A stretch of DNA of 64,000 bases from Candidatus Doudnabacteria bacterium (lineage in GTDB: Bacteria > Patescibacteriota > Doudnabacteria > UBA920): the NCBI GenBank assembly GCA_016218585.1, contig JACRDK010000031.1:65764-129763 (forward strand), given 5' to 3'. A program made the translations under genes and the position numbers. This document shows, piece by piece, positions 693-20,936 of this stretch. Position 1 is the first letter of the stretch; the number at the start of each line of letters is the position of its first letter. Below the pieces are notes generated by a model, which searched no databases, had not been told where the DNA came from, and was given only the letters and a program-made list of their open reading frames with translations.

Positions 693-695
693 AAA

Positions 696-1487: not shown

Positions 1488-1581
1488 ATTTTAGACACTT
1501 AATATTTATTATGATTATTATAGCAAACCAAGATATTAAAAAATATTCCCCGTCAAGTAAAAGATTTTTATAAAAAACAGC

Positions 1582-1610
1582 GGCGATTCCACCCTCCAAA
1601 TGGAATCGCC
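1582..1610 (-). terminator. terminator hairpin downstream of xylose isomerase (GGCGATTCCA..TGGAATCGCC, then T-run on minus strand)
   Basis: 10-bp perfect stem; T6 follows on the minus strand. Confidence 0.55.
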
Positions 1611-1667
1611 GCACTGCTGCAGTTGTTGATGTTGTCCGCCGGCGCGAGGTTGTGCCGGAGAAAAAGA

Positions 1668-2981
1668 CTACTTTCCGTCGCGTCCGACCAAGAGACCCGG
1701 AGTAGTTGCAAGCAACTCCAAGTCGGCGGCGTCCACCCCATAAAGAGCGAGCTTGAGAGCAAATTCGACCATGAGGTGATCCTGGCGCCAACGCTGGATG
1801 CCACCCACCGAAACTTTTGTTGCCAAAAGCACGGCGATGTTTTCCGGATCGGGATCCGCCAGCAAGGCCGCATACTTCTCAAGCCTTTCAGGCGGTGAAT
1901 GCTGGGGCCTGTCGAGATCGTCCAGAGCCATCGCCAGCATAGCGTTGTTCATGAGGCGTGGAACCAGAACCTGCTCGATGAGAGTGTACATCAGGGAATT
2001 GAAGGCGAGGAATTGTTTAAAGATTTCCTCCACTTCCTCCTCAGAGAGGCCGTAGCCCAAGTCGGAACGAAGCGCGTGGCAGTCGAACTCAATGACGCCG
2101 TTCCAGCCTATCTCGTCCAGGTACTTAAAAATAAGCACCATGGTCTCCTGGCCTTCCCCAACGAGAGTCGGGAAGTCATCGTCGAACTGGCCGGGAATCT
2201 GGCCGCCGATGTGCAGGAAGAACAGTTTTTTCTGGTCAGTGGCGTGCATGACTTCCAGGAATGGGTGCTGGTTGCCCATGGCGCTGTGTTGCGGAATTTC
2301 GGGATTTACACCCCAAAAATCGGGGTCGTCGAGGGTGGCAATGAGAGCCAAGGCGGCGCCGACGAGAGCGATGTACATTGCCCCGCGGGGTTCATTGCAC
2401 TTAGGCTCAATCGTGCCGTGCTTGATGGTGTATCGGTTGGCTTTGCAGGACGCCGAGATGATGTTCAGTGCCTGACGAAGCCATTCGAGAGGGCTGTTGT
2501 CACGGCGCGAGGGTACGCAGACGACGGATTCAAAACCGTCGCGCGCGACCCAGTACGTGATGAACTCGGCACCGAGAAAGTTGCCAATCCAGGCGCAACG
2601 AAGGGCCTTCTTGATGGCGAGCACGCGGATTGCCGCGTCGCGGTTAGTGAAACCGCCGGCCGTGAACATGGGGTGTCCGTGAAGACTGCACGTAATCATA
2701 TGCATCTTCAGGCCCGCCTTGTCCATGACTGCCTTGATGGCGCGAAGCTCTTCATGGATTGGATGCTTGGGATTCTTGTAATCCTCGGGGTCGTCTGGAT
2801 CCCAACCCAGCAGATCGTCGTCGTGGGCTGAGAAGAGATCAATGTACCCACTGGTCTTGGCCCATGCCAAGATAGACATGGCCTTGAGAACGCTCATGGG
2901 TTTGAGCACCGGGCCACCGAACGGGTCGGCGCCCTGATATTTTACAGTCCAGAGAGCGCCGGAGCGCAATCTTCTTATCAT
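1668..2981 (-). CDS. xylA: xylose isomerase (class II); high-GC foreign-looking gene
   Basis: 437 aa; motifs FSAHDDDLLGWDPDD (cf FHDxD..LGWDTDQFP), IEPKCNEPRG (cf IEPKPxEP), YWVARDGFE (cf WGGREGYE); strong AGGAGG Shine-Dalgarno; about 60% GC against a roughly 40% background. Confidence 0.65.
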   Translation of the reverse strand: MIRRLRSGALWTVKYQGADPFGGPVLKPMSVLKAMSILAWAKTSGYIDLFSAHDDDLLGWDPDDPEDYKNPKHPIHEELRAIKAVMDKAGLKMHMITCSLHGHPMFTAGGFTNRDAAIRVLAIKKALRCAWIGNFLGAEFITYWVARDGFESVVCVPSRRDNSPLEWLRQALNIISASCKANRYTIKHGTIEPKCNEPRGAMYIALVGAALALIATLDDPDFWGVNPEIPQHSAMGNQHPFLEVMHATDQKKLFFLHIGGQIPGQFDDDFPTLVGEGQETMVLIFKYLDEIGWNGVIEFDCHALRSDLGYGLSEEEVEEIFKQFLAFNSLMYTLIEQVLVPRLMNNAMLAMALDDLDRPQHSPPERLEKYAALLADPDPENIAVLLATKVSVGGIQRWRQDHLMVEFALKLALYGVDAADLELLATTPGLLVGRDGK

Positions 2982-3312
2982 ACTAATAATCCTCCTGAAC
3001 GTTTCGGACTATTACCAAAAAATCCCTGAAAAAGACTATTTTGGCAATCAAAATATCTTACACCTAAGCGGAGTAATCGTCAATAGACAAAAAAACAACC
3101 TTCTCTTTATGGAAGGCCGTCTTATTATTAATACAATTAATATTAACCCTACATATTTCCAACTGCACGATTCCTGCGGCGCGCCTGACCGCCCCCGACT
3201 GGACAATTCGCAGTTTACCCCGTAGCGGAGCCGATGAACGTCGCAGCGACTGGTACTGGGGCGAATTGTCCAGTTGAACGATAATTGTATAAGTATAAAT
3301 TTTACTTCCCTT

Positions 3313-3672
3313 CTAAACAGATAATTTTTCTATTGCCGCTTGGATAGTTGGAACAAAATAGGTCTGGCGGCCGCGGTTGCTCTCTATTATTAAGGCTTTA
3401 AAGGCTTCACTGGTAATATTGGAAAAATCGCCAACAATGGCGCAAGCAATGCCGTATTGGGAAAACTTTTGCAAAATTTCTCCGGCCAGGCCGGTGCGCA
3501 GCTCAAAAAAGTCCGGATGAATATTTTCCCGGTGCAAAATAATTTTCTTTGGCGCGGGGGTTTGCACATTGGCCACTAAATCCAAAGCGTCTTGCATGCT
3601 GTTTATGCCAATTCCCTCAAACTCAACTTCCGCTATTTTTACTCCCCCATTTTCGTGAATTGTAGTTTTCAT
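3313..3672 (-). CDS. DUF4180-like hypothetical protein
   Basis: 119-aa ORF in host-like GC. Confidence 0.4.
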   Translation of the reverse strand: MKTTIHENGGVKIAEVEFEGIGINSMQDALDLVANVQTPAPKKIILHRENIHPDFFELRTGLAGEILQKFSQYGIACAIVGDFSNITSEAFKALIIESNRGRQTYFVPTIQAAIEKLSV

Positions 3673-3676
3673 AAAG

Positions 3677-4345
3677 CTAGAGTAATTTTAGGATAACTTG
3701 TTTTAAATCGGAAACCGTATTTACAATATTTTTTAAATTAAAATGTTTTTCTCTGTTTAAAATATCTTCTCTGTGGACGCCCCAAGTTACAGCCACGGCG
3801 GGAACGCCTGCCTTATCGGCATCTATAATATCGCCCAAAGCGTCGGTTATAAACAACATTTCTTTATTGCTAACCTTGTATTTGTCCGCAATAATTTTAA
3901 ACTTTTCAACTTTATCTTTAGAAGTTTCAGCCGATGCTATAAAGCCAAATAAATTTTCAATTTGGGAATTCTTTAGCAAAGGCAACGCATTGCGCTCATA
4001 GGCATTGGTATTTAAAACAAGAATGTAACCCAAATTACGCAACTCAGTTAAAAGATCTTTAATCCCTTCAAATAACTTGCTCTGGCTTTTCTTTTCGGCA
4101 TATTCTGCGTGCCGCTTATTTTTTTCTTCTTCAGATTCCGAAATATGCAAGCTTAAATATTTAGCCGCTTCCTGATGAAAATTCCCGCTATGGATTTCAT
4201 TGTACATTTCCTCGGTTACTCCCGGATGCGTTTCCAAAAACACCTTCCTGGCAAAAGGTATGGTATCAAATAGCACTCCGTCCATATCAAAAATTATAAT
4301 TTTGTTGTTATCCACCATACCTAAAGAATAACAAAAAAATGCCAT
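3677..4345 (-). CDS. HAD-superfamily hydrolase (subfamily IA-like)
   Basis: Motif I IIIFDMDGVLFDT; true start may be the internal Met (MVDNNKIII). Confidence 0.65.
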   Translation of the reverse strand: MAFFCYSLGMVDNNKIIIFDMDGVLFDTIPFARKVFLETHPGVTEEMYNEIHSGNFHQEAAKYLSLHISESEEEKNKRHAEYAEKKSQSKLFEGIKDLLTELRNLGYILVLNTNAYERNALPLLKNSQIENLFGFIASAETSKDKVEKFKIIADKYKVSNKEMLFITDALGDIIDADKAGVPAVAVTWGVHREDILNREKHFNLKNIVNTVSDLKQVILKLL

Positions 4346-4390
4346 TTATGCGATTCTAGCGCTTTGGCTTTAAAATTTTCCTAATATATA

Positions 4391-4435
4391 GAGAAAGCGC
4401 GCGTTTCGCCGATGGGCAAAACGCGCGCTTGATGA
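4391..4435. repeat. 45-bp direct repeat copy 1 (contains 12-bp-stem hairpin AAGCGCGCGTTT..AAACGCGCGCTT)
   Basis: Identical to 5280..5324. Confidence 0.9.
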
Positions 4436-4482
4436 TGAGCAGCTATCTCGATTGTTTCGAAGCCGTCCGCAACTACTGCTTA

Positions 4483-5226
4483 TTAGTTGCGATTGGCGGA
4501 GCTGGCTACATACGGCTTGGCGATGAAAGTGGTGTGGCAGCGATAATGGATGCAGGTAATTACCTTCTCCTCATTGCCGAGAACCATGTCCATCATAACC
4601 TGACTGCATTTGGGACATTGGATGTCACCGTAGCCGTTGAAGGCTGTGGCCGTAGGTGACTCAGCCGGCGCAGTGGGCGGCTTGGAAACCTCCGTTTTCT
4701 TGGCGATGGCTTGAAACTTTTGATAACAGACCCGGCAGGAGTATACGTCGGGTTTGTTATTGACGTTCATCCAGATGCCGCATTCGGTTCGCGTACAGCG
4801 TGCCCACCCATCAAAGTCGATTTCGGACTCGGGCAATTTCGGGGCGACCGGAGCAGGTTTGCTGGGCGGCACTGAAACGCAGGACGACGGTAGTGGCGCG
4901 GACGCCAAGGAGCCGTCCAAAAGTTTCCGGAGCTCGTCCGGCGTACACCGGGCACCGGTAACTTTGCCGTGCGGCCCATCCATTATGAGCCGTCCTCGGA
5001 ACTGATGTGTAACACGAAGGCTGTAGAACACACTCATTCCGCGTATTGTGCCAAGGTTAGAGGCAATCACGACGAAATCGGGTTGCAGTTCTTTTAAAAG
5101 CTTCGCCGTTTGTGTCGTTGCCGTAAACGGCGTAAACGGAAGCGCGGTAAAGAGTCCGCTATGGCCTGACTGTTGCCATTGCTCTGCTGTACCGGGATCC
5201 TTATCAACAAAAAAGACCGTAGACAT
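4483..5226 (-). CDS. hypothetical protein: N-terminal flavodoxin/receiver-like fold followed by two CxxC zinc-ribbon pairs; high-GC foreign gene
   Basis: 247 aa; strong AAGGAGG SD; GC about 60%; CxxC..CxxC twice; no confident family assignment. Confidence 0.5.
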   Translation of the reverse strand: MSTVFFVDKDPGTAEQWQQSGHSGLFTALPFTPFTATTQTAKLLKELQPDFVVIASNLGTIRGMSVFYSLRVTHQFRGRLIMDGPHGKVTGARCTPDELRKLLDGSLASAPLPSSCVSVPPSKPAPVAPKLPESEIDFDGWARCTRTECGIWMNVNNKPDVYSCRVCYQKFQAIAKKTEVSKPPTAPAESPTATAFNGYGDIQCPKCSQVMMDMVLGNEEKVITCIHYRCHTTFIAKPYVASSANRN

Positions 5227-5279
5227 ACGATCCTCCTTATGTGGTATATATTAGTGAAAATTGAACCCTGTGTCAAAAT

Positions 5280-5324
5280 GAGAAAGCGCGCGTTTCGCCG
5301 ATGGGCAAAACGCGCGCTTGATGA
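5280..5324. repeat. 45-bp direct repeat copy 2
   Basis: Perfect copy of 4391..4435 on the other side of the high-GC gene. Confidence 0.9.
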
Positions 5325-5378
5325 CTAAATTGAGTTTAATTTAACTATTCTCCAAAAGCTTTTTGTTATCTAATTAGA

Positions 5379-6236
5379 TTATTTCCATTCAGCCAATAAT
5401 GGTTTGCCGGGGCTCTGCCATGGGCCGACGTATAAGCCATTAGCCTTTCTTTGTTCCTCGTTGCTTTTGCCGCCATCGGACAATATTTCCTGAAAAGCCT
5501 CATTGAAACCGCTCTCAAATTTTTTTCGTCCATCCTGCAAGGCAGTCTGCCATTCCGCGTCCGAAATCCCGTCAATTTTGCCGCTATAAAACGGAAACTT
5601 TTTTTCATAAGAAATTGATTTAGCGGCAAGATCATGCCAGGCATTTACATCGCTGCCAGCCCACTCATTAATTGGCCCGCCTATAACTTGGTTTAAGGAA
5701 GCCTTTAACGCCGGGTAATTTGACTGGTCGGGGTCATTGGCAACCCAAGCGCCGGAACGCGACTGAAAAATATAAAACCAAAATGCCGCCTGTTCAATAT
5801 TTCCCTGCTTAGCTAGCACTCCGGCCAACTCGGCATACATAAAAGGGTTGACCTGTTCGGGATGCTTAAAAATTTGTTCAATGGCGGCTTGCTGATCCGC
5901 AAGTTCCTGTTGGGAACTGCCTTTTGGCATAAGCATTTGTTCTAACTGACTTTCCTTGAATTCATTTGATTTGTTGTTCATATTATTCTGGCTGCTGTTA
6001 GATGTTTGCGAGTTGGAATTTGGCTGCTGCTTTTCCAAATAATAGCCGTACCAGGCCAGGAGGATAAAAATAATAACAACTGCCCCAATAACTGCGCCGA
6101 CAATTTTCCAAACTTTTTTGGCGGCAGAAGGCGCGGGAGTCGGACTGCTTGCATTAGGGGTCGGCGTTGGAACAGCCATTTCCGGGCTGTTGTCTAACTG
6201 GCTATTTGTATTTGTGTTTAAATTTTGCTCTGGCAT
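5379..6236 (-). CDS. hypothetical membrane-anchored protein (Pro/Thr-rich N-terminus, single TM, Asn/Ser-rich linker)
   Basis: 285-aa ORF; TM segment IVGAVIGAVVIIFILLAWY. Confidence 0.5.
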   Translation of the reverse strand: MPEQNLNTNTNSQLDNSPEMAVPTPTPNASSPTPAPSAAKKVWKIVGAVIGAVVIIFILLAWYGYYLEKQQPNSNSQTSNSSQNNMNNKSNEFKESQLEQMLMPKGSSQQELADQQAAIEQIFKHPEQVNPFMYAELAGVLAKQGNIEQAAFWFYIFQSRSGAWVANDPDQSNYPALKASLNQVIGGPINEWAGSDVNAWHDLAAKSISYEKKFPFYSGKIDGISDAEWQTALQDGRKKFESGFNEAFQEILSDGGKSNEEQRKANGLYVGPWQSPGKPLLAEWK

Positions 6237-6272
6237 AATTTGTTATTAATTATTTTTTTAGTTAAGGCGGGC

Positions 6273-7022
6273 TTAATCTTTATAGCTGTCTGGGGCTATG
6301 GTTTGAATTTTCCAAGTTCCTTCTTTCACCAAATTAAAAATTAAGTGTTTGGAAGTTTTGTCGTTCCCTATGACTTGAAGATTAACCGTGGCGGTTGTGA
6401 AGACAACTTTGTTCTCGTAAACGGAATAACCGCTATTGTCCAATAAAATAGGATACTGCGCAACCAGGGCGGGTAAATTTACCGGGCTTTGTTTAGAAAT
6501 TAAAGCTTTTGCCGCATCCATATTTGATGCCTTTAAATCGCGGTAAAAATCTAATACCGCTGATTTGGAAAAATATTTATCTTCAAGCATTGCGACTTTG
6601 TCTTTTATCCCCTGCTGCGCTTCTTGGCTATCGGGTCCGGCCTCGGGGAAAATAAAATTGCTGGAGTCTTGGCCAAACTGGCGCCAACCCCCTTTTTCAA
6701 GATCATAATTTAGCAAAACAAAATTAATTGAATCTGCATCCTCTTGTTGGCTCTTAACATATGCGGCGTGGTTGCCTACCTGCATCGCATCCAAGAATTT
6801 AACCGGGAATTGTTTAGGGTCTACTTCGTCAAATATTGGAGAAGTGGCCTCTTCGCTGGCATCTTCCAATGCGGATTTTATATCGTTGTTCATATTATTA
6901 TTTTGTTTGTTATCTTTGGCTGATTGTTGGACTTGTTGGTTTGTAGCTGGTGGCGGTGTTTTTGCGCCGCAGGCGGCCGCTAAAAGCACAATAGAAACTA
7001 AGCTAACGATTGTTTTTTTCAT
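6273..7022 (-). CDS. hypothetical lipoprotein
   Basis: Signal peptide plus lipobox LLAAAC. Confidence 0.55.
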   Translation of the reverse strand: MKKTIVSLVSIVLLAAACGAKTPPPATNQQVQQSAKDNKQNNNMNNDIKSALEDASEEATSPIFDEVDPKQFPVKFLDAMQVGNHAAYVKSQQEDADSINFVLLNYDLEKGGWRQFGQDSSNFIFPEAGPDSQEAQQGIKDKVAMLEDKYFSKSAVLDFYRDLKASNMDAAKALISKQSPVNLPALVAQYPILLDNSGYSVYENKVVFTTATVNLQVIGNDKTSKHLIFNLVKEGTWKIQTIAPDSYKD

Positions 7023-7225
7023 TTTTAAAATTTTAATTATTTGTTTCTAAAAAACTATATAATATAGAGTATAAATATAAATAACTAAGCCGCAAAAATT
7101 CATACTCCGCATATTTATAAGTTAATTATACACTCTTTTAATACAGTTAGCCATTGCGGCATAAAAGCCTTAAAAACTCCTAACAAAAAACGCGCCGGCT
7201 TTAGGCCGGCGTTTTTAAATTTAGT

Positions 7226-8599
7226 TTATATCTCCGAATGAATGTTTGCGTTGTTGTGGAAGAAGTTGGTTGGGTCGTATTTCTTTTTTATTTCCAGCAA
7301 ACGATCCCAGGTTTTTCCGGGGTAAGCTTCCTTTATGCGTTCCTTGTCGTCATATTGCCCCAAGAAATTTGCGTAAACCGCTTTGTCGCCCTGGTCTAAC
7401 AATTTTAAAAATTCATCCGCCCAAACTTTGCGTTCTTGTTTTTCCTGTTCGGTTTCGTAAAAGCTGGCAACGTTTGCCATAATTGCGCTGCTCCTGTGGG
7501 CGTAAGCGGTATTAAAACTCCCTACCCTGGCCATTGCTCCGCCTAACACTCTAAGCTGCAAAACTTTCATTTGGGCGTTTAGGGAATTTAAATGCGCAAC
7601 TATTTTTTCCGCCAATTCTTCGTCTATATTATCCAAATGCAAATTTTTAGACACTGCTTTAGGGTGATAGTCCGGATTTTCCGGAAAATAAATATCTTTA
7701 TAGCGCATTGGCTTTAGCATATCCGCAAGCGGCGCAGCTAAAGCGCGCAGCGGAGAGAGCGCTTTTTCCCCTTCTGTTGGGCTGCCCGCATACACAGCCA
7801 AAGCCATAACGCATAGCTTGCCGTGATGCTGGGCCGGAATAAACGGCATTGGGGGCATAGGCATAATATTATAAATCACCGAAAGCTCTTCCGGAGCTTT
7901 TTTGGCAATGTCCACGGCTTTCCAAATTACTTCCGGGGTTGCGGGCAAAAATAGCATGCCGCCATAGCAATTTTCCAGCTTGTGCAATTGAAATTTAAAC
8001 TTTGTGGCAATGCCAAAATTTCCGCCGCCGCCGCGAATGGCCCAGAATAAATCGGGGTTTGTTTTGCTGTCTGCCAGCAGCGTTTGGCCGTCTGCCGTAA
8101 TTATTTCCGCGGCCAAAAGATTGTCTATGGTAAGGCCAAATTTTCTAACTAAAAATCCCACGCCGCCGCCTAAAGTAATTCCGCCCACGCCAACCGAGCC
8201 TGCATCGCCAAAGCCTAAAACAAAATTATGCTTATCTAGCTCCGTGGTTACTTCCCCTGCGGTCATGCCGCTTTCTATCCACGCGGTTTGCTCTGTTGTG
8301 TTTACTTCCATTCTTTTCATATCGCGCAAATCTATAACTACGGCGCCGTTTACAACGCAAGCTCCGGTGGCGCTGTGTCCCCCGCTGCGCACGCAAACTT
8401 CCAAATTATTTTCCTTGGCAAAAATAATTATTTTTTTAATATCTTCCGCATCTGTCACGCGCACAATGCACGCGGGTTTTCTGTCTAATTCGCCCGGAAA
8501 AACCTGCCGGGCTTTATTGTATTCAACATCATCAGGGAAAATAATTTTTCCCTTAAGGGTATGCGAAAACGCTTTTAAATTGTCGGAAATATTTTGCAT
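7226..8599 (-). CDS. FAD-linked oxidoreductase (PCMH-type FAD-binding, berberine-bridge-enzyme-like C-terminus)
   Basis: RSGGHSATG FAD motif; C-terminal NFFHNNANI BBE-like motif. Confidence 0.7.
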   Translation of the reverse strand: MQNISDNLKAFSHTLKGKIIFPDDVEYNKARQVFPGELDRKPACIVRVTDAEDIKKIIIFAKENNLEVCVRSGGHSATGACVVNGAVVIDLRDMKRMEVNTTEQTAWIESGMTAGEVTTELDKHNFVLGFGDAGSVGVGGITLGGGVGFLVRKFGLTIDNLLAAEIITADGQTLLADSKTNPDLFWAIRGGGGNFGIATKFKFQLHKLENCYGGMLFLPATPEVIWKAVDIAKKAPEELSVIYNIMPMPPMPFIPAQHHGKLCVMALAVYAGSPTEGEKALSPLRALAAPLADMLKPMRYKDIYFPENPDYHPKAVSKNLHLDNIDEELAEKIVAHLNSLNAQMKVLQLRVLGGAMARVGSFNTAYAHRSSAIMANVASFYETEQEKQERKVWADEFLKLLDQGDKAVYANFLGQYDDKERIKEAYPGKTWDRLLEIKKKYDPTNFFHNNANIHSEI

Positions 8600-8663
8600 A
8601 TAGGAAATAATAACAAAAAATATTAGCTTTGGCCATAGAATAAAAACTATTATTTACAAAATG

Positions 8664-8706
8664 AAGAAGCGCACGACACCACCTGCTAGGGTGGGCGCGC
8701 GCTTCG
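8664..8706. repeat. GC-rich palindromic element / terminator behind foreign gene B (GAAGCGCACG..TAGGGTGGGCGCGCGCTTCG)
   Basis: Imperfect inverted repeat; shares its ends with the element at 10526..10572. Confidence 0.5.
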
Positions 8707-8717
8707 TTCAGCTGTGT

Positions 8718-9257
8718 TCATGAGACGAGAGCCTCGGCCAGGTGCTGGACGATGCAGCCGAGCGCCCCGTCCGGATTTCCCGGCATGTCGAGGCAACCGC
8801 TGAATTGGACCAATATTACCAGCGGGTCGCCTTCGCCCGGCAACAGGCAGTAGTGGATTGTGAGCCGTTCGCCGCGCCACTCGCGGAGAAGTTTCTCAAG
8901 CCGTTCGATGAGCGGTTTCGGAATTGAAAGATCGGTTACGACTGCTTGCTGGTTCCAGTCGCGAGTGTACGTTCTCTCGGTCGTTTCCATCAAGTAATCG
9001 ATGAAGATGTCGGCGTTTTCAAAGCCTTCACCAATTCGAAGCGGTGCCGGCAACTTGATTTCTACGGCCAGGCTGCCGCCTTTCGGTATGGCGTAGTGCA
9101 TTGTCCAAGGCTGGTTGAGGAACGCCTGGAAATCAGCGTAATCATCAATGCTGCCTTTTCCCGTGGTGTAGCTCCGGCTCCAAAACAGCGAGCCAAGGAC
9201 TCCTACCGGAACAGGTTCCCTAATCCGCAGAGATTCAATCGTGTCACAAATTGGCAT
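8718..9257 (-). CDS. hypothetical protein; high-GC foreign gene
   Basis: 179 aa; AAGGAGG SD; GC about 60%. Confidence 0.45.
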   Translation of the reverse strand: MPICDTIESLRIREPVPVGVLGSLFWSRSYTTGKGSIDDYADFQAFLNQPWTMHYAIPKGGSLAVEIKLPAPLRIGEGFENADIFIDYLMETTERTYTRDWNQQAVVTDLSIPKPLIERLEKLLREWRGERLTIHYCLLPGEGDPLVILVQFSGCLDMPGNPDGALGCIVQHLAEALVS

Positions 9258-9365
9258 TCTGCCTCCTTATTGATACCGTAATGTACCAAAAAAGCCTAAG
9301 GAAGTCCAGACCAAAAAATGCGCGTGCCCAAGGCACGCGCATTTTTTAACTCATTACAGATTGTG

Positions 9366-9959: not shown

Positions 9960-9992
9960 ATTTTGATTATATCATTTTTTAACTCAACATTA

Positions 9993-13139: not shown

Positions 13140-13865
13140 TTAAGGGTTATTAAATTTTGGTTCATATACCTTTTTAAACTCTTCGAGAGCTTCTGCCAAA
13201 TCTGATTTTAAGAGATTTATTGCTTCCTGCTGGGTTCCATCTTTAATACCAACACCAACCACCCATTTAAAGTCACCACCGGCTTTAAGCCGCAAGTGCT
13301 TATCGGGATTTAACAAAACAGCTCCAAATCCATGACTTGTTAACTCTTGAATGATTACTGAGTTTAATTGTTCGTCTTGTTCATCGTTATTTCTATTTGT
13401 AAATTTAACCACTCCTTTTTTTACTAATATTCTGTTTAGTTCTGACACAATTAGCTCAGGTGCCAGTGAGTGGGTCATCGCTCCAAAGACACTTATGGCC
13501 CCTTGGACTGAATTTGACTCAATTTTCATTTTTTCTGCCGATGATTTTATAAAATGTCCCGGCGCAAAATTTGTTTGATGTTCTGGAAAATTTGTTAAAC
13601 CAAGACCATAAAAATCTATACCCGAGTAATTGCCGTTATTTCTAAACCCTCTGATTGCCTCACCTTTGCCTGTTCCTAAGTCTAAAATTTTTGGCTTTGG
13701 CGAAAGAGAAGACGCGTATTTAAAAAATTGGTTTAAACCAAAAATTAAACACTCATACTCTGCGGCATCTCTAGATAATTCATAGTCAGGCGTTGGGTTG
13801 CGGTCTTGCTTTATTGCTCCCCTTAGACTATTAAAAGCGAATTTTGATAATTCAGATTCGTTCAT
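13140..13865 (-). CDS. class I SAM-dependent methyltransferase
   Basis: Motif I ILDLGTGKGEA. Confidence 0.6.
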   Translation of the reverse strand: MNESELSKFAFNSLRGAIKQDRNPTPDYELSRDAAEYECLIFGLNQFFKYASSLSPKPKILDLGTGKGEAIRGFRNNGNYSGIDFYGLGLTNFPEHQTNFAPGHFIKSSAEKMKIESNSVQGAISVFGAMTHSLAPELIVSELNRILVKKGVVKFTNRNNDEQDEQLNSVIIQELTSHGFGAVLLNPDKHLRLKAGGDFKWVVGVGIKDGTQQEAINLLKSDLAEALEEFKKVYEPKFNNP

Positions 13866-13894
13866 AGTTTAATTATACCATTTTAGTTTCGATC

Positions 13895-14045
13895 GCCCCA
13901 GACAGGCCGGGAGCTGAGCCCAATATTAAATCGGGATGTACCAGATTCAATCGTAATCTCAACAAACCCAAAAAATAACAAAAACCCCCATCATAAAGAT
14001 GAGACTTTTTGTATGGCTCCAGGTAGCAAATGATGTCAGAACTAA
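13895..14045. repeat. intergenic repeat family copy
   Basis: See 11497..11650. Confidence 0.75.
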
Positions 14046-14092
14046 GATTATGGAGAATAAAGAGCATCATTATATACCTGATTTGAAACTTG

Positions 14093-14836
14093 CTATGTAA
14101 ATATCTTTTCCATGACCTGTGCTACCCCTTCATTATTTTCATTTTCAGCTATTAAGTCAGCTTTGGCTTTCAAGTCATCTGTCGCATTACTCATGGCCAC
14201 TTTATAGCCTACACTTTCAAAAATAGGAAGATCATTGTTTCCATCACCAAAACCAACAACTTCTTCTCTTTTTAGATTAAGTAACTCCAGCCATAATTCT
14301 AAGGCGTGTTTTTTTGTAGCTTCTTTATGTACAATATGAATGTCAAAATGCTTTGGTGTCCAGGATGGAACAGGATGGGCTGCAATACCTGTAATCTTAT
14401 TTAGTGCACTCAAAAGGTTTTGGGCGCCGTCCTTACTTACAGTCATTATATAAATAATAGTTTCTGGGCTTTTCACAAGCCTTGCCTTTGCGAGTGAAGA
14501 TTCAGTTTCATTGCTAAAGTATAGCTGGTACTCAAAGGGCGTTGCAATATCAATTATTCCTCTCACCTGTTCAATTGAAAGCTGTTTCTCCCAAATAATT
14601 TTTTCGGTTAAGGGATCTATGATTTGTGTTCCGCCTGATATTATACAAGGACTTGTCAATTTGAGGGTTTTTAGTATATGCCTACAATTTGAAATTGGCC
14701 TACCTGTAGCTGCGGCAACTATTATTCGGTCTTTAATTTTATTAACTGCAGATATAAGCCGTGCCGAAGGCATGCCATCCTCTCTATTAAGAATGGCGGT
14801 TCCGTCTAAATCAAAAATTGCAGCTTTATATTCCAT
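14093..14836 (-). CDS. Cof-type HAD-IIB hydrolase (sugar phosphatase family)
   Basis: AIFDLDGT motif I, GDGNND motif. Confidence 0.7.
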   Translation of the reverse strand: MEYKAAIFDLDGTAILNREDGMPSARLISAVNKIKDRIIVAAATGRPISNCRHILKTLKLTSPCIISGGTQIIDPLTEKIIWEKQLSIEQVRGIIDIATPFEYQLYFSNETESSLAKARLVKSPETIIYIMTVSKDGAQNLLSALNKITGIAAHPVPSWTPKHFDIHIVHKEATKKHALELWLELLNLKREEVVGFGDGNNDLPIFESVGYKVAMSNATDDLKAKADLIAENENNEGVAQVMEKIFT

Positions 14837-14837
14837 A

Positions 14838-15182
14838 TTATTGTTTTTCTATGTACCTTACATGGACTTCGTTTTCTGGTTTCCATGCAGGAGCGGTTAC
14901 AAGCACCATTTTCATTCTGCCCAGATAATAAATTTTTGTCATTGGGGGTGCAACAATAACGTCAGTGGCTTTTACTGGGGTTGACTCTCCATTCAAATAG
15001 AATGTACCCTCACCCTCAATAATGTAGTAAATAAAAGTACTTTCTTTATCGTAAAATTCTTGAAAATGGCCTTCTTCTACCTCAACGTAGACCATTCCTG
15101 CTTCTTCACGATTAACTTGGTAAACCCATAAGTTAATGCCGTGCTTGGATTTGGGGACTGCTTCTGCTCTTGTTAATTTCAT
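14838..15182 (-). CDS. cupin-domain protein
   Basis: 114-aa beta-rich ORF coupled to the HAD gene. Confidence 0.45.
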   Translation of the reverse strand: MKLTRAEAVPKSKHGINLWVYQVNREEAGMVYVEVEEGHFQEFYDKESTFIYYIIEGEGTFYLNGESTPVKATDVIVAPPMTKIYYLGRMKMVLVTAPAWKPENEVHVRYIEKQ

Positions 15183-15367
15183 ATAATTTCATTAGTTTAT
15201 CTTAATTTCTTCATTTTGACCAACAAATTTATACTCATTGTCTAAAGGAACAAAAAAGGTGTCAGGAGCCTTTTTAATTTTTGAGTTATTTCACTTTTAG
15301 TCTATACCTAACCTAAAGGGTTGTAAATATGAGAAGCTTTATAAGTTTTGCCCAAATTATCCAAGTC

Positions 15368-15396
15368 TTGCCAGTTTGAGGAAATTTTGTTAAAAT
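15368..15396 (+). promoter_or_regulatory. sigma70-like promoter (TTGCCA-17-TAAAAT)
   Basis: Consensus-like -35/-10 with 17-nt spacer, upstream of the structured leader and the GIY-YIG gene. Confidence 0.3.
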
Positions 15397-15538
15397 ATGC
15401 AAAGGTGATTAAAAGTCATCTATATATAGACAACGTTCGGGAGTAGCTCTCCGCCAAAGGCGGACTAAAGAGCGGTTAAGCAATCCCAACAGTAAAGTGG
15501 TCCGCCTCTGGCGGAGGCTGTAACTTATTACAAAATGT

Positions 15539-15784
15539 ATGTTTTACATCTATGTTTTAAGAAGCAGTAAAAACAATAAACGATACGTTGGTTCGACATC
15601 AAAGTCGCCCGAAAAGCGAACCAGCGAACACAATAATGGTATTAATAGTTTTACCAGGCACAACAAGCCATGGAACCTAATATACCAAGAATCATTTACG
15701 ACAAAAAGCGAGGCTTTAAAAAGGGAAAACTTTTTGAAGTCTGGTCAAGGCCGTAAATGGCTTGATGAAAATATTCGGGAGTAG
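15539..15784 (+). CDS. small GIY-YIG nuclease-domain protein
   Basis: FYIYVLRS..RYVGST motif; stop codon overlaps the first 10 nt of the tRNA. Confidence 0.6.
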   Translation: MFYIYVLRSSKNNKRYVGSTSKSPEKRTSEHNNGINSFTRHNKPWNLIYQESFTTKSEALKRENFLKSGQGRKWLDENIRE

Positions 15785-16177
15785 CTCAGCGGTAGAGCAA
15801 TCGGCTGTAGACACAGGTCTCAAAAGACCAAATTAGCAGCCTTCTCAAGTAATTGAGAAGTGAATAACGAGGTGAATTGTCCCGATGACAAGTCGGGATT
15901 CCGAAATCGCTTGAAATATTAGCGGAGTCGGAACTGGAAACCTAAATTCGTAAATTACGAATATGGCAATCAGCAGCCAAGCCCAGTTCTTTTAAAAAAA
16001 GATCTGGGAAGGTTCAGAGACTATCTCGAAAGAGAGTAGGCCTTAATAAGTTAAGGTCGAAGCCCCTCGTCCCGTACTCTTTTTATAGAGCGGGAATGAT
16101 ATAGTCCACTCCTAATAGAAATATTGGGGTTACGTGTAACCGATGGGTCCTGGGTTCGAATCCCAGCTCCCGAGCCA
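15775..16177 (+). tRNA. tRNA-Asn(GUU) interrupted by a group I intron in the anticodon loop (exons 15775..15808 and 16137..16177, CCA encoded)
   Basis: Acceptor stem TCGGGAG/CTCCCGA, D-arm GCTC-AGCGGTA-GAGC, anticodon stem ATCGG/CCGAT, T-arm CTGGG-TTCGAAT-CCCAG, G73, CCA. The spliced anticodon loop is CUGUUAA, and U1-A72/G73 match bacterial tRNA-Asn. Confidence 0.7.
15809..16136 (+). other. group I self-splicing intron (tRNA-type, IC3-like)
   Basis: Conserved Q-like AATCAGCAGCC (15969), R-like GGTTCAGAGACTATC (16011), S-like AATGATATAGTCC (16095); P7 GACTA/TAGTC. Internal guide GCAGCC (15836) pairs with exon end GGCUGU including a U-G wobble; UUA just 5' of it can pair with 3' exon UAA (P10); terminal G at 16136. 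Confidence 0.75.
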
Positions 16178-16255
16178 TAACAAAAAGTCTCATCTTTATG
16201 ATGGGGCTTTTTGTTATTCTTTGGGTTTGCTGAAATTACGATTGAGTCTGACACA
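16178..16255. repeat. intergenic repeat family copy (3' half, inverted); serves as terminator right after the tRNA
   Basis: Reverse complement matches ATTCAATCGTAAT.TCAACAAACCCAAA.AATAACAAAAAGCCCCATCATAAAGATGAGACTTTTTGT. Confidence 0.7.
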
Positions 16256-16335
16256 TCACAATCTTTTTTAAGTAGAACCTAGGACCTGTTTGGTGCTATA
16301 ATTAAAATCAGAATCATTATTTAGAAAAAAATTTA

Positions 16336-16764
16336 ATGTTACCCGACGAAAATTCGCAGCGGTTTATTGCTGTATTAAACAAAAAGATTGAAATAGGAAA
16401 GTTAATGAACGCCCTTGGCCATATGACAGCTGGCCTGGCTGGCGGTTTTGGCAAAGGCCAGGAAATGCGCTTTTTGGAATATAAAGACAAAGACGGCGGT
16501 GTCCACCCGCATATTTCCCATTTTCCTTTTATAATCTTAAAGGCGGATAATTCGAATCAAATTAGAAAAGTCAGAAACGAAGCAATAACCAGAAATATAA
16601 TGTTTACGGATTTTACCAGTACAATGACCGTTGGAACTTCGGCAGACCAAGTGGAACGAACAAAAAACACCCCCGAAGCAGAGTTGGAGTATTACGGAAT
16701 TTGTTTATTTGGTTCAACCCAAGAGCTGCGTGAGTTTACTGGTAAATTTTCTTTATTTCAATAA
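16336..16764 (+). CDS. DUF2000-like hypothetical protein
   Basis: 142-aa ORF. Confidence 0.4.
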   Translation: MLPDENSQRFIAVLNKKIEIGKLMNALGHMTAGLAGGFGKGQEMRFLEYKDKDGGVHPHISHFPFIILKADNSNQIRKVRNEAITRNIMFTDFTSTMTVGTSADQVERTKNTPEAELEYYGICLFGSTQELREFTGKFSLFQ

Positions 16765-16774
16765 TTTTAAACTT

Positions 16775-16990
16775 ATGGAAATAGAGCCGGGAATCTATTT
16801 ACATTTCAAAGGTAATAAATACAAGGTTATTGGAATGGTTAAACATTCCGAAACAAATGAAGACTTGGTTTTGTATGAAGCATTATATGAAAATCCTACC
16901 TCAAAATTTTGGGTAAGACCGGCTAATATGTTTTTAGAAGAAGTCCTGGTAAATGGCGAGAAGACTCTCAGGTTTAAAAAACTGCTATAA
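16775..16990 (+). CDS. DUF1653-like small protein
   Basis: Internal ATG MEIEPGIYLHFKGNKYKV; typical 70-aa family size. Confidence 0.45.
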   Translation: MEIEPGIYLHFKGNKYKVIGMVKHSETNEDLVLYEALYENPTSKFWVRPANMFLEEVLVNGEKTLRFKKLL

Positions 16991-17019
16991 TTAAGCTATT
17001 AAAAATATAAACAAAATTT

Positions 17020-17295
17020 ATGACTAAAATAATACTTGGCATTACTCAACCAATTGCAACTGCGCTGATATTAGAACTGCTAATTCTATACACTCCCCTA
17101 AAAAACGTCATCCCACCCAAAAGTTTCCTGTTTTTCTTTATAATAAATTTTGCCGTTTTGTTTGCGATTCAATATTTTCTGCATATTAACTATGAATGGT
17201 ATTGGTGGGCAATTATTAACCCATTTATATACTTTGTATCTATATTTATAATTCCTTTGTTCCTTTTTATGGTTCTGGGAATGACTCAAGGATAA
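17020..17295 (+). CDS. small hydrophobic membrane protein
   Basis: 91 aa, three hydrophobic segments. Confidence 0.35.
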   Translation: MTKIILGITQPIATALILELLILYTPLKNVIPPKSFLFFFIINFAVLFAIQYFLHINYEWYWWAIINPFIYFVSIFIIPLFLFMVLGMTQG

Positions 17296-17407
17296 ACAAA
17301 TTAAGCAGCGGGACCCTTATTGGCCATATAAAACACCAACTTTTGTTGGTGTTTTATATTTATTTAGATGCTATAATATTAAAACTAATTAATAAAATTT
17401 AAATACT

Positions 17408-17830
17408 ATGACAATAAATCCTTGGGTTAATTTTAACGGCAATGCCGAAGAAGCTTTTACTTTTTACAAGTCTGTCTTTGGCGGAGACTTTGCCAAAGTC
17501 GTGCGTTTTAAAGACCTTGCAAGCCCCGAATATCCCGTGGCGGAAAAAGATCAAAATAAAATAATGTTAATTACTTTGCCAATTGGCAAAAGTAATACGC
17601 TAATGGCCAATGACGTTCCGGAAATTATGGGACAAGTAAATGAAAATGAAAACAGAAGCAAAATTGCCATAGCCGCGGACAGCAAAGAAGAAGCGGAAAA
17701 ATTATTTAACGGCCTTTCCGCCGGCGGACAAATAGAAGTACCAATGAGCGACGGTCCCTGGGGCTCGTATTTTGGCATGCTTCGGGACAAATACGGCATT
17801 GAATGGATAATTGAATTTTACTCCAAATAA
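17408..17830 (+). CDS. VOC/glyoxalase-fold protein (PhnB-like)
   Basis: N-terminal MTINPWVNFNGNAEEAFTFYKSVFGG signature. Confidence 0.6.
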   Translation: MTINPWVNFNGNAEEAFTFYKSVFGGDFAKVVRFKDLASPEYPVAEKDQNKIMLITLPIGKSNTLMANDVPEIMGQVNENENRSKIAIAADSKEEAEKLFNGLSAGGQIEVPMSDGPWGSYFGMLRDKYGIEWIIEFYSK

Positions 17831-17845
17831 TATCTTTATTGTACA

Positions 17846-17880
17846 AAGCCCCGGAACTCGTTTGAGTCCCGGGGCCTTTG
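17846..17880. terminator. bidirectional terminator hairpin (GCCCCGGAACTC..GAGTCCCGGGGC)
   Basis: 12-bp stem between convergent genes. Confidence 0.55.
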
Positions 17881-17901
17881 CGATTTTTGAGGAGCCGTTA
17901 T

Positions 17902-18156
17902 TTAGGGCTTCCTCAGGAAATAGAGATTCAGCGGTACCATGCGGCCGAAAAGAAACCCGGCCTGCTGGTAATGATGGACTTCACCGTGGCTCTTTAGCAC
18001 GTGGTGGAGTTCCAGCACGGTCCGATCTTCGCCGGATCGCGTGGCCACCAGGTACCAACCGCTGTTTTCGTGCTGCTCGATGTAGTCGAGCGTATCATCG
18101 ACCGGGACGACCCGGCCGAAGACTTCATCAGTGCTGTTGCGTCTGATTGCTGTCAT
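17902..18156 (-). CDS. hypothetical small protein; high-GC foreign operon gene 3
   Basis: 84 aa; AGGAGAA SD; GC about 60%. Confidence 0.45.
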   Translation of the reverse strand: MTAIRRNSTDEVFGRVVPVDDTLDYIEQHENSGWYLVATRSGEDRTVLELHHVLKSHGEVHHYQQAGFLFGRMVPLNLYFLRKP

Positions 18157-18165
18157 CGTTTTCTC

Positions 18166-18555
18166 CTATAACACATCCATGGGCGGTGGCGAACTTACCA
18201 CATTCAGACCATACCGCCGTGCAACCATCTTGGCTACCAGAGGGTTTACAGCGAAAACCAAAGCGGTTCCGACAATAAACCCGACTGCTTCCAAGGCGGC
18301 AAAAATGAACCCACCGTCCGGGCCGTCTGAAGCAAAGCCGACAAGGCCTGACAGGCCCAGCAAGGCAAAGCTGCCCAGACTGCCGAAAAAGTACAGGCAT
18401 ACAAACCACACCCAGCTCCTGGTGGACGATTGCCTCCTGTCCATGACTGAACAGGTTGCTTTGGCATGCCGGGCTTCGCCGATATTGCTAATAATGACCG
18501 CGATGGCCACCGAAAGCAGTACGAAACCTAAAACTATCAATACTTCCTTAAGCAT
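18166..18555 (-). CDS. hypothetical 3-TM membrane protein; high-GC foreign operon gene 2
   Basis: 129 aa; GGAGGA SD. Confidence 0.45.
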   Translation of the reverse strand: MLKEVLIVLGFVLLSVAIAVIISNIGEARHAKATCSVMDRRQSSTRSWVWFVCLYFFGSLGSFALLGLSGLVGFASDGPDGGFIFAALEAVGFIVGTALVFAVNPLVAKMVARRYGLNVVSSPPPMDVL

Positions 18556-18711
18556 ACATCCTCCAATTTTGAAATATCTACCCTTCCAAATTCACCTTTC
18601 GACAGGCTCAAGACCTGTGGCAAAATTAGATGAACTTAGAAGGATGAAGCAAGTGGCGCGAATACTTGCTTCAAGTTTAGTGTATGGCCTTCGCGCGGCC
18701 AAGTTGCGGTT

Positions 18712-20559
18712 TTACTTCTTCGGCTGGCGGATCTTCTTGCCGAGTTCCCGAAGCTGCTCGGGGCTCATCTGCTTAATCTCTTCCGTCACCGTTCTTGCTT
18801 CGTTTTGCGCTTCTTCCTTGTCCCGGCGCTGGGTCGAGCGTTCGGTCACCTCGGTCTGGGCCTTAGTGACTTCCAGCGGAAGCGATAGATTGTCGAAGTT
18901 ATGCATCGGGACGATATCTTCGCCGGAGGCGAAGTATTCGATCTTGACCTTGTCGCCCGGCTCCGTTACCGGGAGTTTGTGGAAGTCGGCGCTGCCGCCA
19001 GTGAACAGATGCGGAACGCCTTTCAAATGCACGTAGTACACGGCGCCCGTAGTCAGCAGATCCGGCTTTACCCGGTCCACTGTTCCCTCGATGGTTTGCA
19101 AATCGCGCGTCTTGTCGAGCGCCACTTGTTGGCCGAACTGGGAGAGTAGTTTTTGATAAGCGCGGAGTGCTTCGAACTGGTTGCGGCCAGTCGCGACGGT
19201 CTGGATATTGGTGATATCCACAATCGCGACGCCCTGGTAAGCGTGATTCTCTGAGAGCAACGGAACGACCGATGACATAATGCCGTAGACGTTGTAGAGT
19301 TGCGGGTCGACGCCATGGAGCTTCTTGTACTGGACATCCTGGTTCTTGCTAATCGCGTCTAGCACCGCCTGGTCCGTCCCGCCGCCTTTGGTCTTATACA
19401 ACACCGTCTTCCCAGTCCGGGAGTTAGTGTAGACGAGAGATACGAGCGAGTCGTCCTTGTCATTGCGCGAGGTCAGGCCGGTCACCCAGTCGGGTTGCTG
19501 GTCGGAAGCATAAATCAGGTTGGGGTCTTCGGGTTTGGTAAGGTCTTTCGTACCCCACCAGCTGTTGAGCCAACCGTGCGTGTATTCGCCCCACCAGTCG
19601 AGGTAATTCTTGACGTAATTGGACGGAATAGCGCGGTCGATCCAGTCGGGAATTTCTCCCATCCTTTTGAAATTGATGTCGCCGGAAACTGGATCCACGA
19701 TGGCCACGCCCGTGACCTTTTTACCGCTCCACATGATGGTCGGTTCAAAAGTCGAAACTACCCACCACGGCCGCTGGTTATCGTCGATCTCAAACTGGTA
19801 TTCGGCCAGACCCTTGCCCAGGTACCCGTTATTGCGCAGATGCCGTTCCAAGTTGTTCCCGAAGCAGGCTTCGGGCATGTAACGGAACTGTTGGTCGGAG
19901 AGCAGGATCTTGAGAATAGGTTGCCGATGCGGATCTTCGCCGTGGACCATGATGTAACCGGGTGTCGCCTTGGTGTTGAGCCAGACCGAGAAGCCGGAAA
20001 AATCCAGCGGCGCCACATACCACAGTTCTCCGTTGATCATCTGCAAAGTCATGTGATCCTCGGAAATGACGAACTGGCTGCCGATCGCGCCCGCTTCGCC
20101 GAGGGCTTTCTTAGCCAGGTAGATGGCGTTCTCCCGGGTGGACATGCGCATGTGCTTGGGGTCCTTGGGTTGGACGTCTTGGGTCCACACCCTGGTTTCC
20201 AGAGATCCGATCATATGCTGGTATTCGTCGGCGCGGAACAGGCCGCTTCCCAGAATGAAGCTACCGATATACAACACGGCAGCCCCGATCGGGAAAATCG
20301 CGGCTTTGGTGATATGGGTATCGTAGTCGTCTTCGATGAACGCGTCGATGACGGCGGCGATGATCCAGCAGATGAATATAAACACGCCAGGCACGCCGAA
20401 CAGCGGCCAGACAGTCGAAGGGGTAGCGAGGTAGAAGACAAGCCAAAGAACAATGGCCGAAATCGACCCCTGCCAAACGGCAGCCGTAATCTTCCTTCCC
20501 ATTAGGAGCGGGACGGTTCCGATTGCGGCGCAAATCAACGCTGCAAGAAAGTAAAACAC
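18712..20559 (-). CDS. hypothetical large membrane protein (4 N-terminal TM helices plus about 450-aa extracytoplasmic domain, charged C-terminal tail); high-GC foreign operon gene 1
   Basis: 615 aa; GTG start 7 nt after AAGGAGG. Confidence 0.5.
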   Translation of the reverse strand: MFYFLAALICAAIGTVPLLMGRKITAAVWQGSISAIVLWLVFYLATPSTVWPLFGVPGVFIFICWIIAAVIDAFIEDDYDTHITKAAIFPIGAAVLYIGSFILGSGLFRADEYQHMIGSLETRVWTQDVQPKDPKHMRMSTRENAIYLAKKALGEAGAIGSQFVISEDHMTLQMINGELWYVAPLDFSGFSVWLNTKATPGYIMVHGEDPHRQPILKILLSDQQFRYMPEACFGNNLERHLRNNGYLGKGLAEYQFEIDDNQRPWWVVSTFEPTIMWSGKKVTGVAIVDPVSGDINFKRMGEIPDWIDRAIPSNYVKNYLDWWGEYTHGWLNSWWGTKDLTKPEDPNLIYASDQQPDWVTGLTSRNDKDDSLVSLVYTNSRTGKTVLYKTKGGGTDQAVLDAISKNQDVQYKKLHGVDPQLYNVYGIMSSVVPLLSENHAYQGVAIVDITNIQTVATGRNQFEALRAYQKLLSQFGQQVALDKTRDLQTIEGTVDRVKPDLLTTGAVYYVHLKGVPHLFTGGSADFHKLPVTEPGDKVKIEYFASGEDIVPMHNFDNLSLPLEVTKAQTEVTERSTQRRDKEEAQNEARTVTEEIKQMSPEQLRELGKKIRQPKK

Positions 20560-20936
20560 TTGAGGCCTCCTTTGCCTTGTGTGAGAGCGAGATTAGTTTC
20601 GGAGCAGCCGAAACCGCCGTACCTTGGGAGATACGAACATATTATAATGGCATAAATTGGCTTGTTTGTCAAGATTTTTAGCCATCACAAAAACCCTTTA
20701 TTTTAGGGGGTAAAATTCAAAAAAAAGACACGAAGACAGACTATTAAGGACTGTTTCATTTCTCATTTTAGTACCAGTAACCCGTACCATGTAATACCCG
20801 TCACAGAGCCACGCAAGATTGCCCGAAAAGGGGTGACCGGAACCATACCACGGAGCCTTTAAAAACCACCACTATTTATTGGTGGTTTTTAAAGGAAAAT
20901 AGGAGCTTGAATCTGTTTGATGGTATAATTATATTT

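Follow-up and report, generated by a model that had tools for sequence, protein, structure and literature searches.

Single-unit GC-rich islands of apparently foreign origin in a tRNA-containing accessory zone of a Doudnabacteria genome

What are the five short GC-rich segments that stand, one at a time, among low-GC genes on a chromosome of the Candidate Phyla Radiation (CPR, or Patescibacteria), and how did they come there? They lie within 64 kb of DNA of a Doudnabacteria bacterium (contig JACRDK010000031.1, positions 65,764 to 129,763), called here the window and numbered from its first letter. In NCBI, the proteins of the window are annotated under a 'Candidatus Doudnabacteria bacterium' metagenome-assembled genome (MAG), with locus tags HY918_* on a contig 137,608 bp long. 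From the letters alone, the original prediction had offered either repeated horizontal acquisition or a chimeric assembly. We read the segments (islands 1 to 5) as real and fairly recent horizontal acquisitions of single units into the Doudnabacteria chromosome, within a 25-kb accessory zone that contains a tRNA gene, and we give this reading a probability of about 0.7.

Composition, expression signals and junctions of the islands

In a 300-bp sliding profile, five blocks with a GC fraction of 0.55–0.65 stand out from surroundings of 0.30–0.45 between 1.5 and 20.6 kb. With the limits given in the original prediction, the GC contents of islands 1 to 5 are 53.8, 53.8, 56.0, 60.2, and 54.7%, against 39.5% in the rest of 1..24000 and 43.1% in 24001..64000. 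The blocks are thus real, and the 58–62% first quoted for them is slightly high. Outside the islands, 1.9% of the 600-bp windows reach at least 54% GC, and these are confined to a GH18-domain gene (38.7–39.5 kb) and to the interior of a gene for 2993 amino acids. The GC content at third codon positions (GC3) is 0.59–0.73 in island genes (mean 0.67) and 0.29–0.52 in host genes (mean 0.42; Mann–Whitney p = 2e-8), the GH18 gene (0.60) being the only host gene outside that range. Codon usage was compared by a leave-one-island-out log-likelihood ratio, in which each island is scored with a model trained on the other islands only. The score is clearly positive for five of the seven island genes (+0.19 to +0.31 per codon), weak for the gene of island 2 (+0.08), about zero for the gene labelled I5b, and negative for every host gene (median −0.27). 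The checks proposed at the outset (sliding-window GC, GC3, and codon usage) set the island genes apart from the host genes, and all seven island open reading frames (ORFs) are indeed on the minus strand.

The translation signals separate the two groups even more sharply. A Shine–Dalgarno (SD) core, AGGAG or GGAGG at 4–20 nt upstream of the start, precedes seven of seven island genes and one of 47 host genes (Fisher p = 4.5e-8), as had been predicted; the energy of the anti-SD duplex averages −10.2 kcal/mol over the island genes, compared with −1.2 kcal/mol over the host genes. At host starts, a −10-like hexamer (TAnWAT) occurs 5–9 nt upstream in 10 of 47 genes, with a spacing peak at 6–7 nt, and in none of the island genes. 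A −10 element so close to the start codon is typical of leaderless mRNAs. Most of the remaining host genes have short AT-rich leaders without SD. In eight loci of relatives defined by their RsgA proteins (mostly 54–70% identity; 29–47% GC), an SD core is present in six of 87 genes, and SD-poor starts look like a trait of the lineage.

Each island unit ends at its 3′ side with a hairpin followed by a T-run, and each has a promoter-like site with −35 and −10 elements, recognized by consensus matches only. The GC-rich terminators of the original prediction are present in all five units; compared with shuffled sequences, they fold strongly in islands 1, 2, 3, and 5 (z = −3.5 to −7.3) and more weakly in island 4 (z = −1.3). 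The shift in GC content, GC3, codon usage, and translation signals is abrupt and falls on intergenic boundaries, and the non-coding flanks (promoter-like sites and GC-rich terminators) change in step with the ORFs. This coincidence upholds the proposal of repeated horizontal acquisition. All ten junctions are intergenic, and every host and island ORF is intact.

The junctions can be compared with an independent assembly, the Logan contigs of run SRR12113407, made with a different assembler (k=31). The contigs L045 (1..2008), L044 (1985..4420), L012 (4406..5309, a separate contig of 904 bp at island 2), L001 (5295..12588), and L011 (16009..21872) are 100% identical to the window. Both junctions of island 1 (L045 and L044), of islands 3 and 4 (L001), and of island 5 (L011) are reproduced, eight of the ten, so that chimerism is very unlikely for these four. 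At island 2, the Logan contigs end inside both copies of a 45-bp repeat, and an integrated island, an empty site with an 889-bp circle, or a copy elsewhere would look alike; the placement of island 2 is that of the NCBI assembly alone.

Anatomy and products of the units

The features of the islands given in this section are on the minus strand. Island 1 (1578..3276; 54.6% GC) contains one ORF (1668..2981) for a xylose-isomerase-like TIM-barrel protein of 437 amino acids in Pfam family PF01261. It is preceded by an AGGAGG (2991..2996), a leader of ∼70 nt, and a promoter-like site TTGACG-17-TAAGAT (3055..3083; a consensus match), and followed by a terminator hairpin with a 15-bp stem and a T-run (1580..1612). 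The initial label xylA was an over-call: the protein scores 164.6 bits against TIGR02631 (cutoff 447) and 38.7 against TIGR02630 (cutoff 533), neither xylB nor xylR is present near island 1, and the product is named 'TIM barrel protein' in NCBI. Its nearest solved structures are the class-I xylose isomerases of Thermus and actinomycetes (144 bits to 1bxc in the PDB). On such scores, the protein is a remote relative of class-I xylose isomerases and not an equivalog.

At the 5′ end of island 1, a non-coding GC-rich block (∼65%; ∼3160..3276) contains the inverted repeat CTGGACAATTCGC...GCGAATTGTCCAG, perfect over 14 bp. Rfam gives no match for the block, and its folding is not clearly beyond that of shuffled sequences (z = −1.8); on these two grounds a structured RNA was discarded. 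The block may remain from a gene or terminator that lay upstream in the donor, or from a previous insertion.

Island 5 (17845..20866; 53.6% GC) is a unit of three ORFs, each with its own SD. The first (18712..20559) codes for a membrane protein of 615 amino acids from a Patescibacteria-wide family and starts with GTG after AGGAGG; the second (18166..18555) for a membrane protein of 129 amino acids, with GGAGG upstream; and the third (17902..18156) for a protein of 84 amino acids, with AGGAG upstream. The promoter-like site TTGACA-17-CATTAT, with a TGn extension, is at 20641..20672 (again a consensus match; leader ∼75 nt) and the terminator hairpin at 17844..17880 (z = −6.9). In NCBI, the start of the first gene is an internal ATG, giving 596 amino acids; the upstream GTG is preceded by AAAGGAGG and gives 615, a choice that agrees with the length of the homologues (roughly 610). 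The AlphaFold model of the 615-residue protein (pLDDT 86) predicts an N-terminal helical membrane bundle, a beta-rich ectodomain, and a long C-terminal helix. Among PDB structures, the best TM-scores are ≤0.2 and no neighbor is convincing, so that the assignment stops, on the model, at a probable membrane-anchored protein with a beta-rich ectodomain.

Island 2 (4391..5324; 53.4% GC) contains an ORF (4483..5226) for a Cys-rich, zinc-ribbon-like protein of 247 amino acids, with only a sub-threshold match to HypA-like zinc ribbons. The SD (AGGAGG) is at 5232..5237 and the promoter-like site TTGACA-17-TAATAT at 5248..5276 (consensus match). Two identical 45-bp copies of a direct repeat (4391..4435 and 5280..5324) border the island, and both contain a hairpin of 16-bp stem (−29 kcal/mol, z = −7.3). 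In island 3 (8656..9312; 54.8% GC), the ORF (8718..9257) codes for a protein of 179 amino acids for which no family match was found. The AGGAGG is at 9262..9267, the 5′ module, with a promoter-like TGGACT-N14-TGgTACATT, at 9287..9312, and the 3′ hairpin terminator at 8667..8704.

Island 4 (10519..11517; 58.3% GC) contains an ORF (10596..11423) for a uridine-phosphorylase-like protein of 275 amino acids; the longest frame (10596..11579) is over-extended, and the SD-led ATG at 11423 gives the 275 residues also annotated in NCBI. The SD (GAGGAG) is at 11436..11441 with a leader of ∼65 nt, the 5′ module at 11492..11517, and the 3′ hairpin at 10530..10569. The protein belongs to the Pfam PNP_UDP_1 superfamily. 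It had been called DeoD-like, which again says too much: the scores are 92.5 bits against NF004489 (cutoff 230) and 73 against TIGR00107 (cutoff 232), and the best model is the uridine phosphorylase TIGR01718 (174.8, cutoff 280). The best PDB matches are also uridine phosphorylases, to which the protein is nearer while remaining below the cutoffs of both.

Islands 2, 3, and 4 have end modules in common, of which islands 1 and 5 have none. The 5′ modules of islands 3 and 4 are the same at 25 of 26 positions (0.02 chance matches expected); by its consensus match, the 26-mer may be read as a −35 box and an extended −10 box. The 3′ hairpins of islands 3 and 4 are related, and the base of their stem is also that of the island 2 repeat. 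The hairpins read GAAGCGCRC...GYGCGCTTC or AAGCGCGCG...CGCGCGCTT, and the pattern AAGCGCRC-N(10-40)-GYGCGCTT occurs four times in the 64 kb, at island edges only, with 0.01 expected. The degenerate form of the pattern has matches in 17 GC-rich viral contigs, none of which encodes a relative of any window protein; for that reason we treat these matches as generic terminators. A common 5′ target, CTGGAC, was considered and dropped as too weak: it is found at the 5′ edge of islands 1, 3, and 4 and not of islands 2 and 5. The common modules and codon usage suggest that the islands come from one donor genome or gene pool.

The host lineage itself has repeated terminator/promoter modules. An AT-rich intergenic repeat, 82–92% identical between copies, is present at 11527..11651 and 13919..14043 (minus strand) and at ∼16169..16290 (plus strand). 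It consists of a hairpin terminator (ACAAAAAGYCTYATCTTTATGATGGGGSTTTTTGT) and ∼90 nt that extend into the promoter of the next gene. Given this host family, the simplest reading of the island modules is that they are the equivalent intergenic repeats of the donor, which came in together with each gene. The copy at 11527..11651 abuts island 4 and diverges from its paralogues right after '...CAGCTCCCGGTCTG' ('...CAGCTCCCGGYCTG'), which places the 5′ edge of island 4 within a few bases. The copy at 16.2 kb lies directly 3′ of the tRNA gene, and the other two open with a stretch resembling a tRNA 3′ end, 'CTGGAGCCA'.

Donors, vehicles and other explanations

The modules of islands 2 to 4 recall mobile cassettes. 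A dedicated cassette-mobilizing system, integron-like or hairpin-targeting and with its recombinase encoded outside the window, would excise units with conserved 5′ and 3′ modules and insert them as small circles at hairpin sites. The perfect 45-bp direct repeat around island 2, with its 16-bp-stem hairpin, is the trace to be expected from an 889-bp circle integrating at a matching site, and the assembly graph there is equally compatible with a free circle and an empty site. The ORFs of islands 3 and 4 are unrelated and yet have the 26-nt module in common on their 5′ side and related hairpins on their 3′ side, and all units are co-oriented. Integron cassettes likewise are short units in a common orientation, most of them with a single ORF, that have unrelated functions and a 3′ palindrome, and island 2 sits between near-identical palindromes as in chromosomal super-integrons.

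However, Pfam scans of the ORFs found no integrase, transposase, relaxase, or other mobility or recombinase domain in the 64-kb window, and no tyrosine recombinase domain either. The window has neither IntI nor attI, and the hairpins, read directly, do not contain the attC R″/R′ core (RYYYAAC / GTTRRRY), so an integron was rejected. Unlike integron cassettes, each unit has its own promoter-like site and intrinsic terminator, and host genes stand between the units; islands 1 and 5 have none of the modules. A search of JGI metagenomes for the 26-mer and one of IMG/VR for its first 18 nt gave no match. The host's own repeated terminator/promoter family also means that the modules may simply be intergenic repeats of the donor. 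We consider such a cassette system unlikely. Even less should one expect its most specific form, in which islands 2–4 would be the cargo of an undescribed CPR system with a recombinase acting in trans, single genes would be held between a promoter module and a hairpin, circles of <1 kb would integrate at matching hairpins, the 45-bp repeat would be a scar, and the SD leader would serve as a portable translation adaptor.

Other vehicles were looked for. Island proteins have no meaningful match in PHROG; the proteins of 615, 247, and 179 amino acids have no relatives in IMG/VR, and those of 179 and 247 none in INPHARED. A phage or plasmid vehicle was set aside on the lack of relatives in viral collections, with only 24–32% identical plasmid matches for the 615-residue protein; a defence island was set aside with no PADLOC matches. 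The morons of lambdoid phages, reportedly described by Juhala, by Hendrix, and by their colleagues in 2000, are said to be extra genes of deviant composition, with their own promoter and terminator, inserted between resident genes. The islands resemble them as genes of deviant composition with a promoter-like site and an intrinsic terminator. In contrast to morons, their neighbors are cellular genes (HAD, FAD oxidase, DnaJ-like, SRPBCC, RsgA, and others) and not those of a prophage, with no PHROG match and no relatives in viral collections for the three proteins searched.

The donor was first sought among Actinobacteria or Deinococcota. An island GC content of 54–60% and AGGAGG SDs would suit such phyla, which might include the physical host of the epibiont; the nearest solved structures of the TIM barrel come from Thermus and actinomycetes, and most sampled Patescibacteria genes have no SD. 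The named relatives point elsewhere. For the 615-residue protein, the best non-self matches have 63–64% identity, and the matches labeled with a source are all Patescibacteria (Lloydbacteria, Paceibacterota, Moranbacteria, Adlerbacteria, Buchananbacteria); outside Patescibacteria, its only relatives are 'hypothetical proteins' with 24–32% identity, on plasmids of Bacteroidota and Firmicutes. For the TIM barrel, the source-labeled matches at 49–60% identity are all Patescibacteria MAGs, followed at ∼45% by proteins labeled 'xylose isomerase' from Spirochaetia, Victivallales, and Saccharibacteria. The nearest named homologues of both proteins (49–64%) lie in other classes of Patescibacteria, and class-I xylose isomerases are only distantly similar to the TIM barrel (144 bits in the PDB; 165 bits against the NCBIfam cutoff of 447). 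The phosphorylase subfamily is small (34 representatives below 1e-30; top matches at 52–59% identity), and its best-contextualized relative (59%) is on a 36%-GC contig from 0.1-µm-filtered groundwater, a low-GC context that fits a CPR origin without showing one. The best-hit taxonomy proposed as a check, done for the 615-residue and TIM-barrel proteins, therefore speaks for Patescibacteria and against the donor phyla first named, and transfer from a high-GC donor outside the CPR is quite unlikely. From these comparisons of islands 1 and 5 with named databases, the donor was most likely another CPR bacterium; the best reading is that the donor or donors use SDs, have roughly 55–60% GC, and belong to an unsampled lineage.

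Homologues of the island genes in other CPR genomes have a GC content at or modestly above that of their hosts (at or near it in contigs L007 and L002). In Patescibacteria contigs L002 (2033..9560 and 12433..13944), L006 (1564..2907), and L007 (6001..7152), such homologues are preceded by AGGAGG. The majority of the genes next to the homologues in L002 and L007 have AT-rich starts without SD, and in L002 and L006 the more GC-rich genes are among those led by an SD.

Could the islands then be native? In that case, GC-rich, SD-led genes would be long resident and would owe their composition and SDs to selection, for instance for high expression from leadered mRNAs. The 615-residue family is widespread in Patescibacteria, and the homologues of island genes in other CPR loci are SD-led too. 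In those loci, a strong SD precedes 13 of 153 genes, whose GC3 is raised by 0.04 (p = 0.016); this is a weak hint, from a biased sample, that SD-led genes may form a GC-elevated minority. The difference within the window is far larger (+0.25), the abrupt shift takes in non-coding flanks and terminators, and the homologues in L007 and L002 do not depart, or hardly depart, from the GC of their own hosts. Core genes of the window (RsgA, DEAD-box helicase, sigma factor, MscL) have host composition and no SD, and the island products are unrelated accessory functions and not those of typical highly expressed genes. Long residence under selection is accordingly improbable.

Very improbable indeed is a chimera of assembly or binning, in which a low-GC contig would have been joined to GC-rich pieces of another organism's DNA: the genome is a short-read MAG and island 2 has 45-bp repeat borders and a separate 904-bp contig, but the second assembly repeats eight of ten junctions at 100% identity, no ORF is broken at any of the ten intergenic junctions, and ten repeat-mediated mis-joins within 20 kb would need common k-mers, with no repeats found at the other eight junctions.

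Horizontal acquisition of single units is thus the reading that we retain. The DNA would come by uptake, most likely the entry route, from co-resident, GC-richer, SD-using bacteria, and would then be joined to the chromosome in intergenic DNA beside terminator hairpins, by recombination that is illegitimate or uses short homology. Each unit consists of a putative sigma-70-like promoter, an SD of AGGAGG type within a leader of 20–70 nt, between one and three ORFs, and a GC-rich intrinsic terminator; because it brings its own signals, it could be expressed wherever it lands. Signals in the style of the donor would matter in a host whose starts are leaderless (−10 box 6–9 nt before the ATG) or AT-rich and without SD. 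Natural competence is demonstrated in Saccharibacteria (PMC10633639), genes for type IV pili and for competence are widespread in the CPR, and pili and competence genes are noted as prevalent in Patescibacteria (PMC12455944). In aquifer Patescibacteria, transfer of individual genes is common, and 83% of the inferred transfers come from other Patescibacteria (PMC12455944).

Several points weigh against this reading. It assumes an SD-using CPR donor clade, and most genes in the other CPR loci have no SD. In a collection of 5.8 billion proteins, no donor sequence above 64% identity was found, and each island protein stands alone in its cluster at 90% identity; with no closer donor sequence, the word recent draws on the unameliorated composition alone. 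Illegitimate recombination would not obviously give rise to the end modules common to islands 3 and 4, nor to the perfect 45-bp repeat that flanks island 2. An empty site was sought with two scans: that of GTDB with the FAD oxidase gave only a 55%-identical gene of Anaerolineales and no close relative, and that of JGI metagenomes with RsgA gave 14 relatives at 32–70% identity with no neighbors in common. The polarity of the insertions and their exact boundaries are thus drawn from one genome.

The accessory zone and what the islands mean

The first 25 kb of the window (1–25 kb) are a patchwork of small unrelated accessory genes with one tRNA gene. Apart from the islands, the window contains ordinary cellular genes, including those for RsgA, a DEAD-box helicase, an extracytoplasmic function (ECF) sigma factor, MscL, a type IV pilin, glycosyltransferases, and a dihydroorotate dehydrogenase, and no phage gene. 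The tRNA gene (15775..16177, plus strand) is split by a group I intron (Rfam RF00028, 59 bits, at 15836..16128). The intron, roughly 300–330 nt, is in the anticodon loop; ARAGORN finds the tRNA only with long introns allowed, and the anticodon is read as that of Asn, Val, or Leu according to where the splice site is placed. A 21-nt copy of the tRNA 5′ end, GAMAAYRTTCGGGAGTAGCTC, is present 338 nt upstream of the tRNA gene (15429..15449 vs. 15767..15787) and may have been left by an integration or a rearrangement at this tRNA gene. An accessory zone with an intron-split tRNA fits a hotspot of acquisition, with the tRNA as a possible anchor. As in tRNA-associated islands, the accessory patchwork extends on both sides of the tRNA gene and the 5′ end of the tRNA is partially duplicated upstream. 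In contrast to those islands, there is no integrase, the GC-rich units do not adjoin the tRNA, host genes stand among them, and the repeats with the stretch resembling a tRNA 3′ end are inverted relative to the tRNA.

Other genes of the window also depart from the host pattern or from its expected relatives. The GH18-domain gene (38774..39811, minus strand; GC 0.54, GC3 0.60) has no SD and an intermediate codon score, shares 4 nt with the polysaccharide-deacetylase gene upstream, an overlap that puts it inside a host operon, and matches a PHROG family of minor tail proteins. It may be an older, partly ameliorated acquisition. The ORF of 2993 amino acids (45615..54596, plus strand) has an inner stretch of 54–59% GC at ∼47.7–49.3 kb. 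The FAD/BBE oxidase gene (7226..8599, minus strand) has host composition, and its sole relative in 185,579 species genomes is from Anaerolineales (Chloroflexota; 55%). Some of the 'background' genes of the zone may thus be older imports as well.

The nearest parallel is in the islets of Patescibacteria (Gios et al. 2025, mSystems, PMC12455944), which also are compositionally deviant acquired genes in streamlined groundwater CPR genomes, with donors that are mostly other Patescibacteria and uptake by competence as the proposed route. That gene exchange takes place mostly among Patescibacteria is already published (PMC12455944). Here, the difference is that single transcription units are resolved with promoter-like site, SD, and terminator in an SD-poor, partly leaderless host, and that three units have end modules in common; no donor–recipient pair is at hand. 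Modestly new are the almost perfect division of foreign from native genes by a strong SD in an SD-poor host and the promoter and terminator modules common to unrelated cargos.

For the use of this MAG, it follows that the islands should not be stripped as contamination and that 'xylA' and 'deoD' are unsuited to metabolic reconstruction. A sugar isomerase and a nucleoside phosphorylase could represent salvage functions in an auxotrophic epibiont. On the reading preferred here, the locus would be a clean case, resolved to the base pair, of gene gain in the CPR, in which complete expression units enter singly, at a hotspot around a tRNA gene and with no mobility genes in sight. In such lineages, a strong SD together with a high GC3 would give a simple marker of recent acquisitions, and SD-led foreign genes in an SD-poor host would constitute a natural experiment on whether foreign translation signals work.

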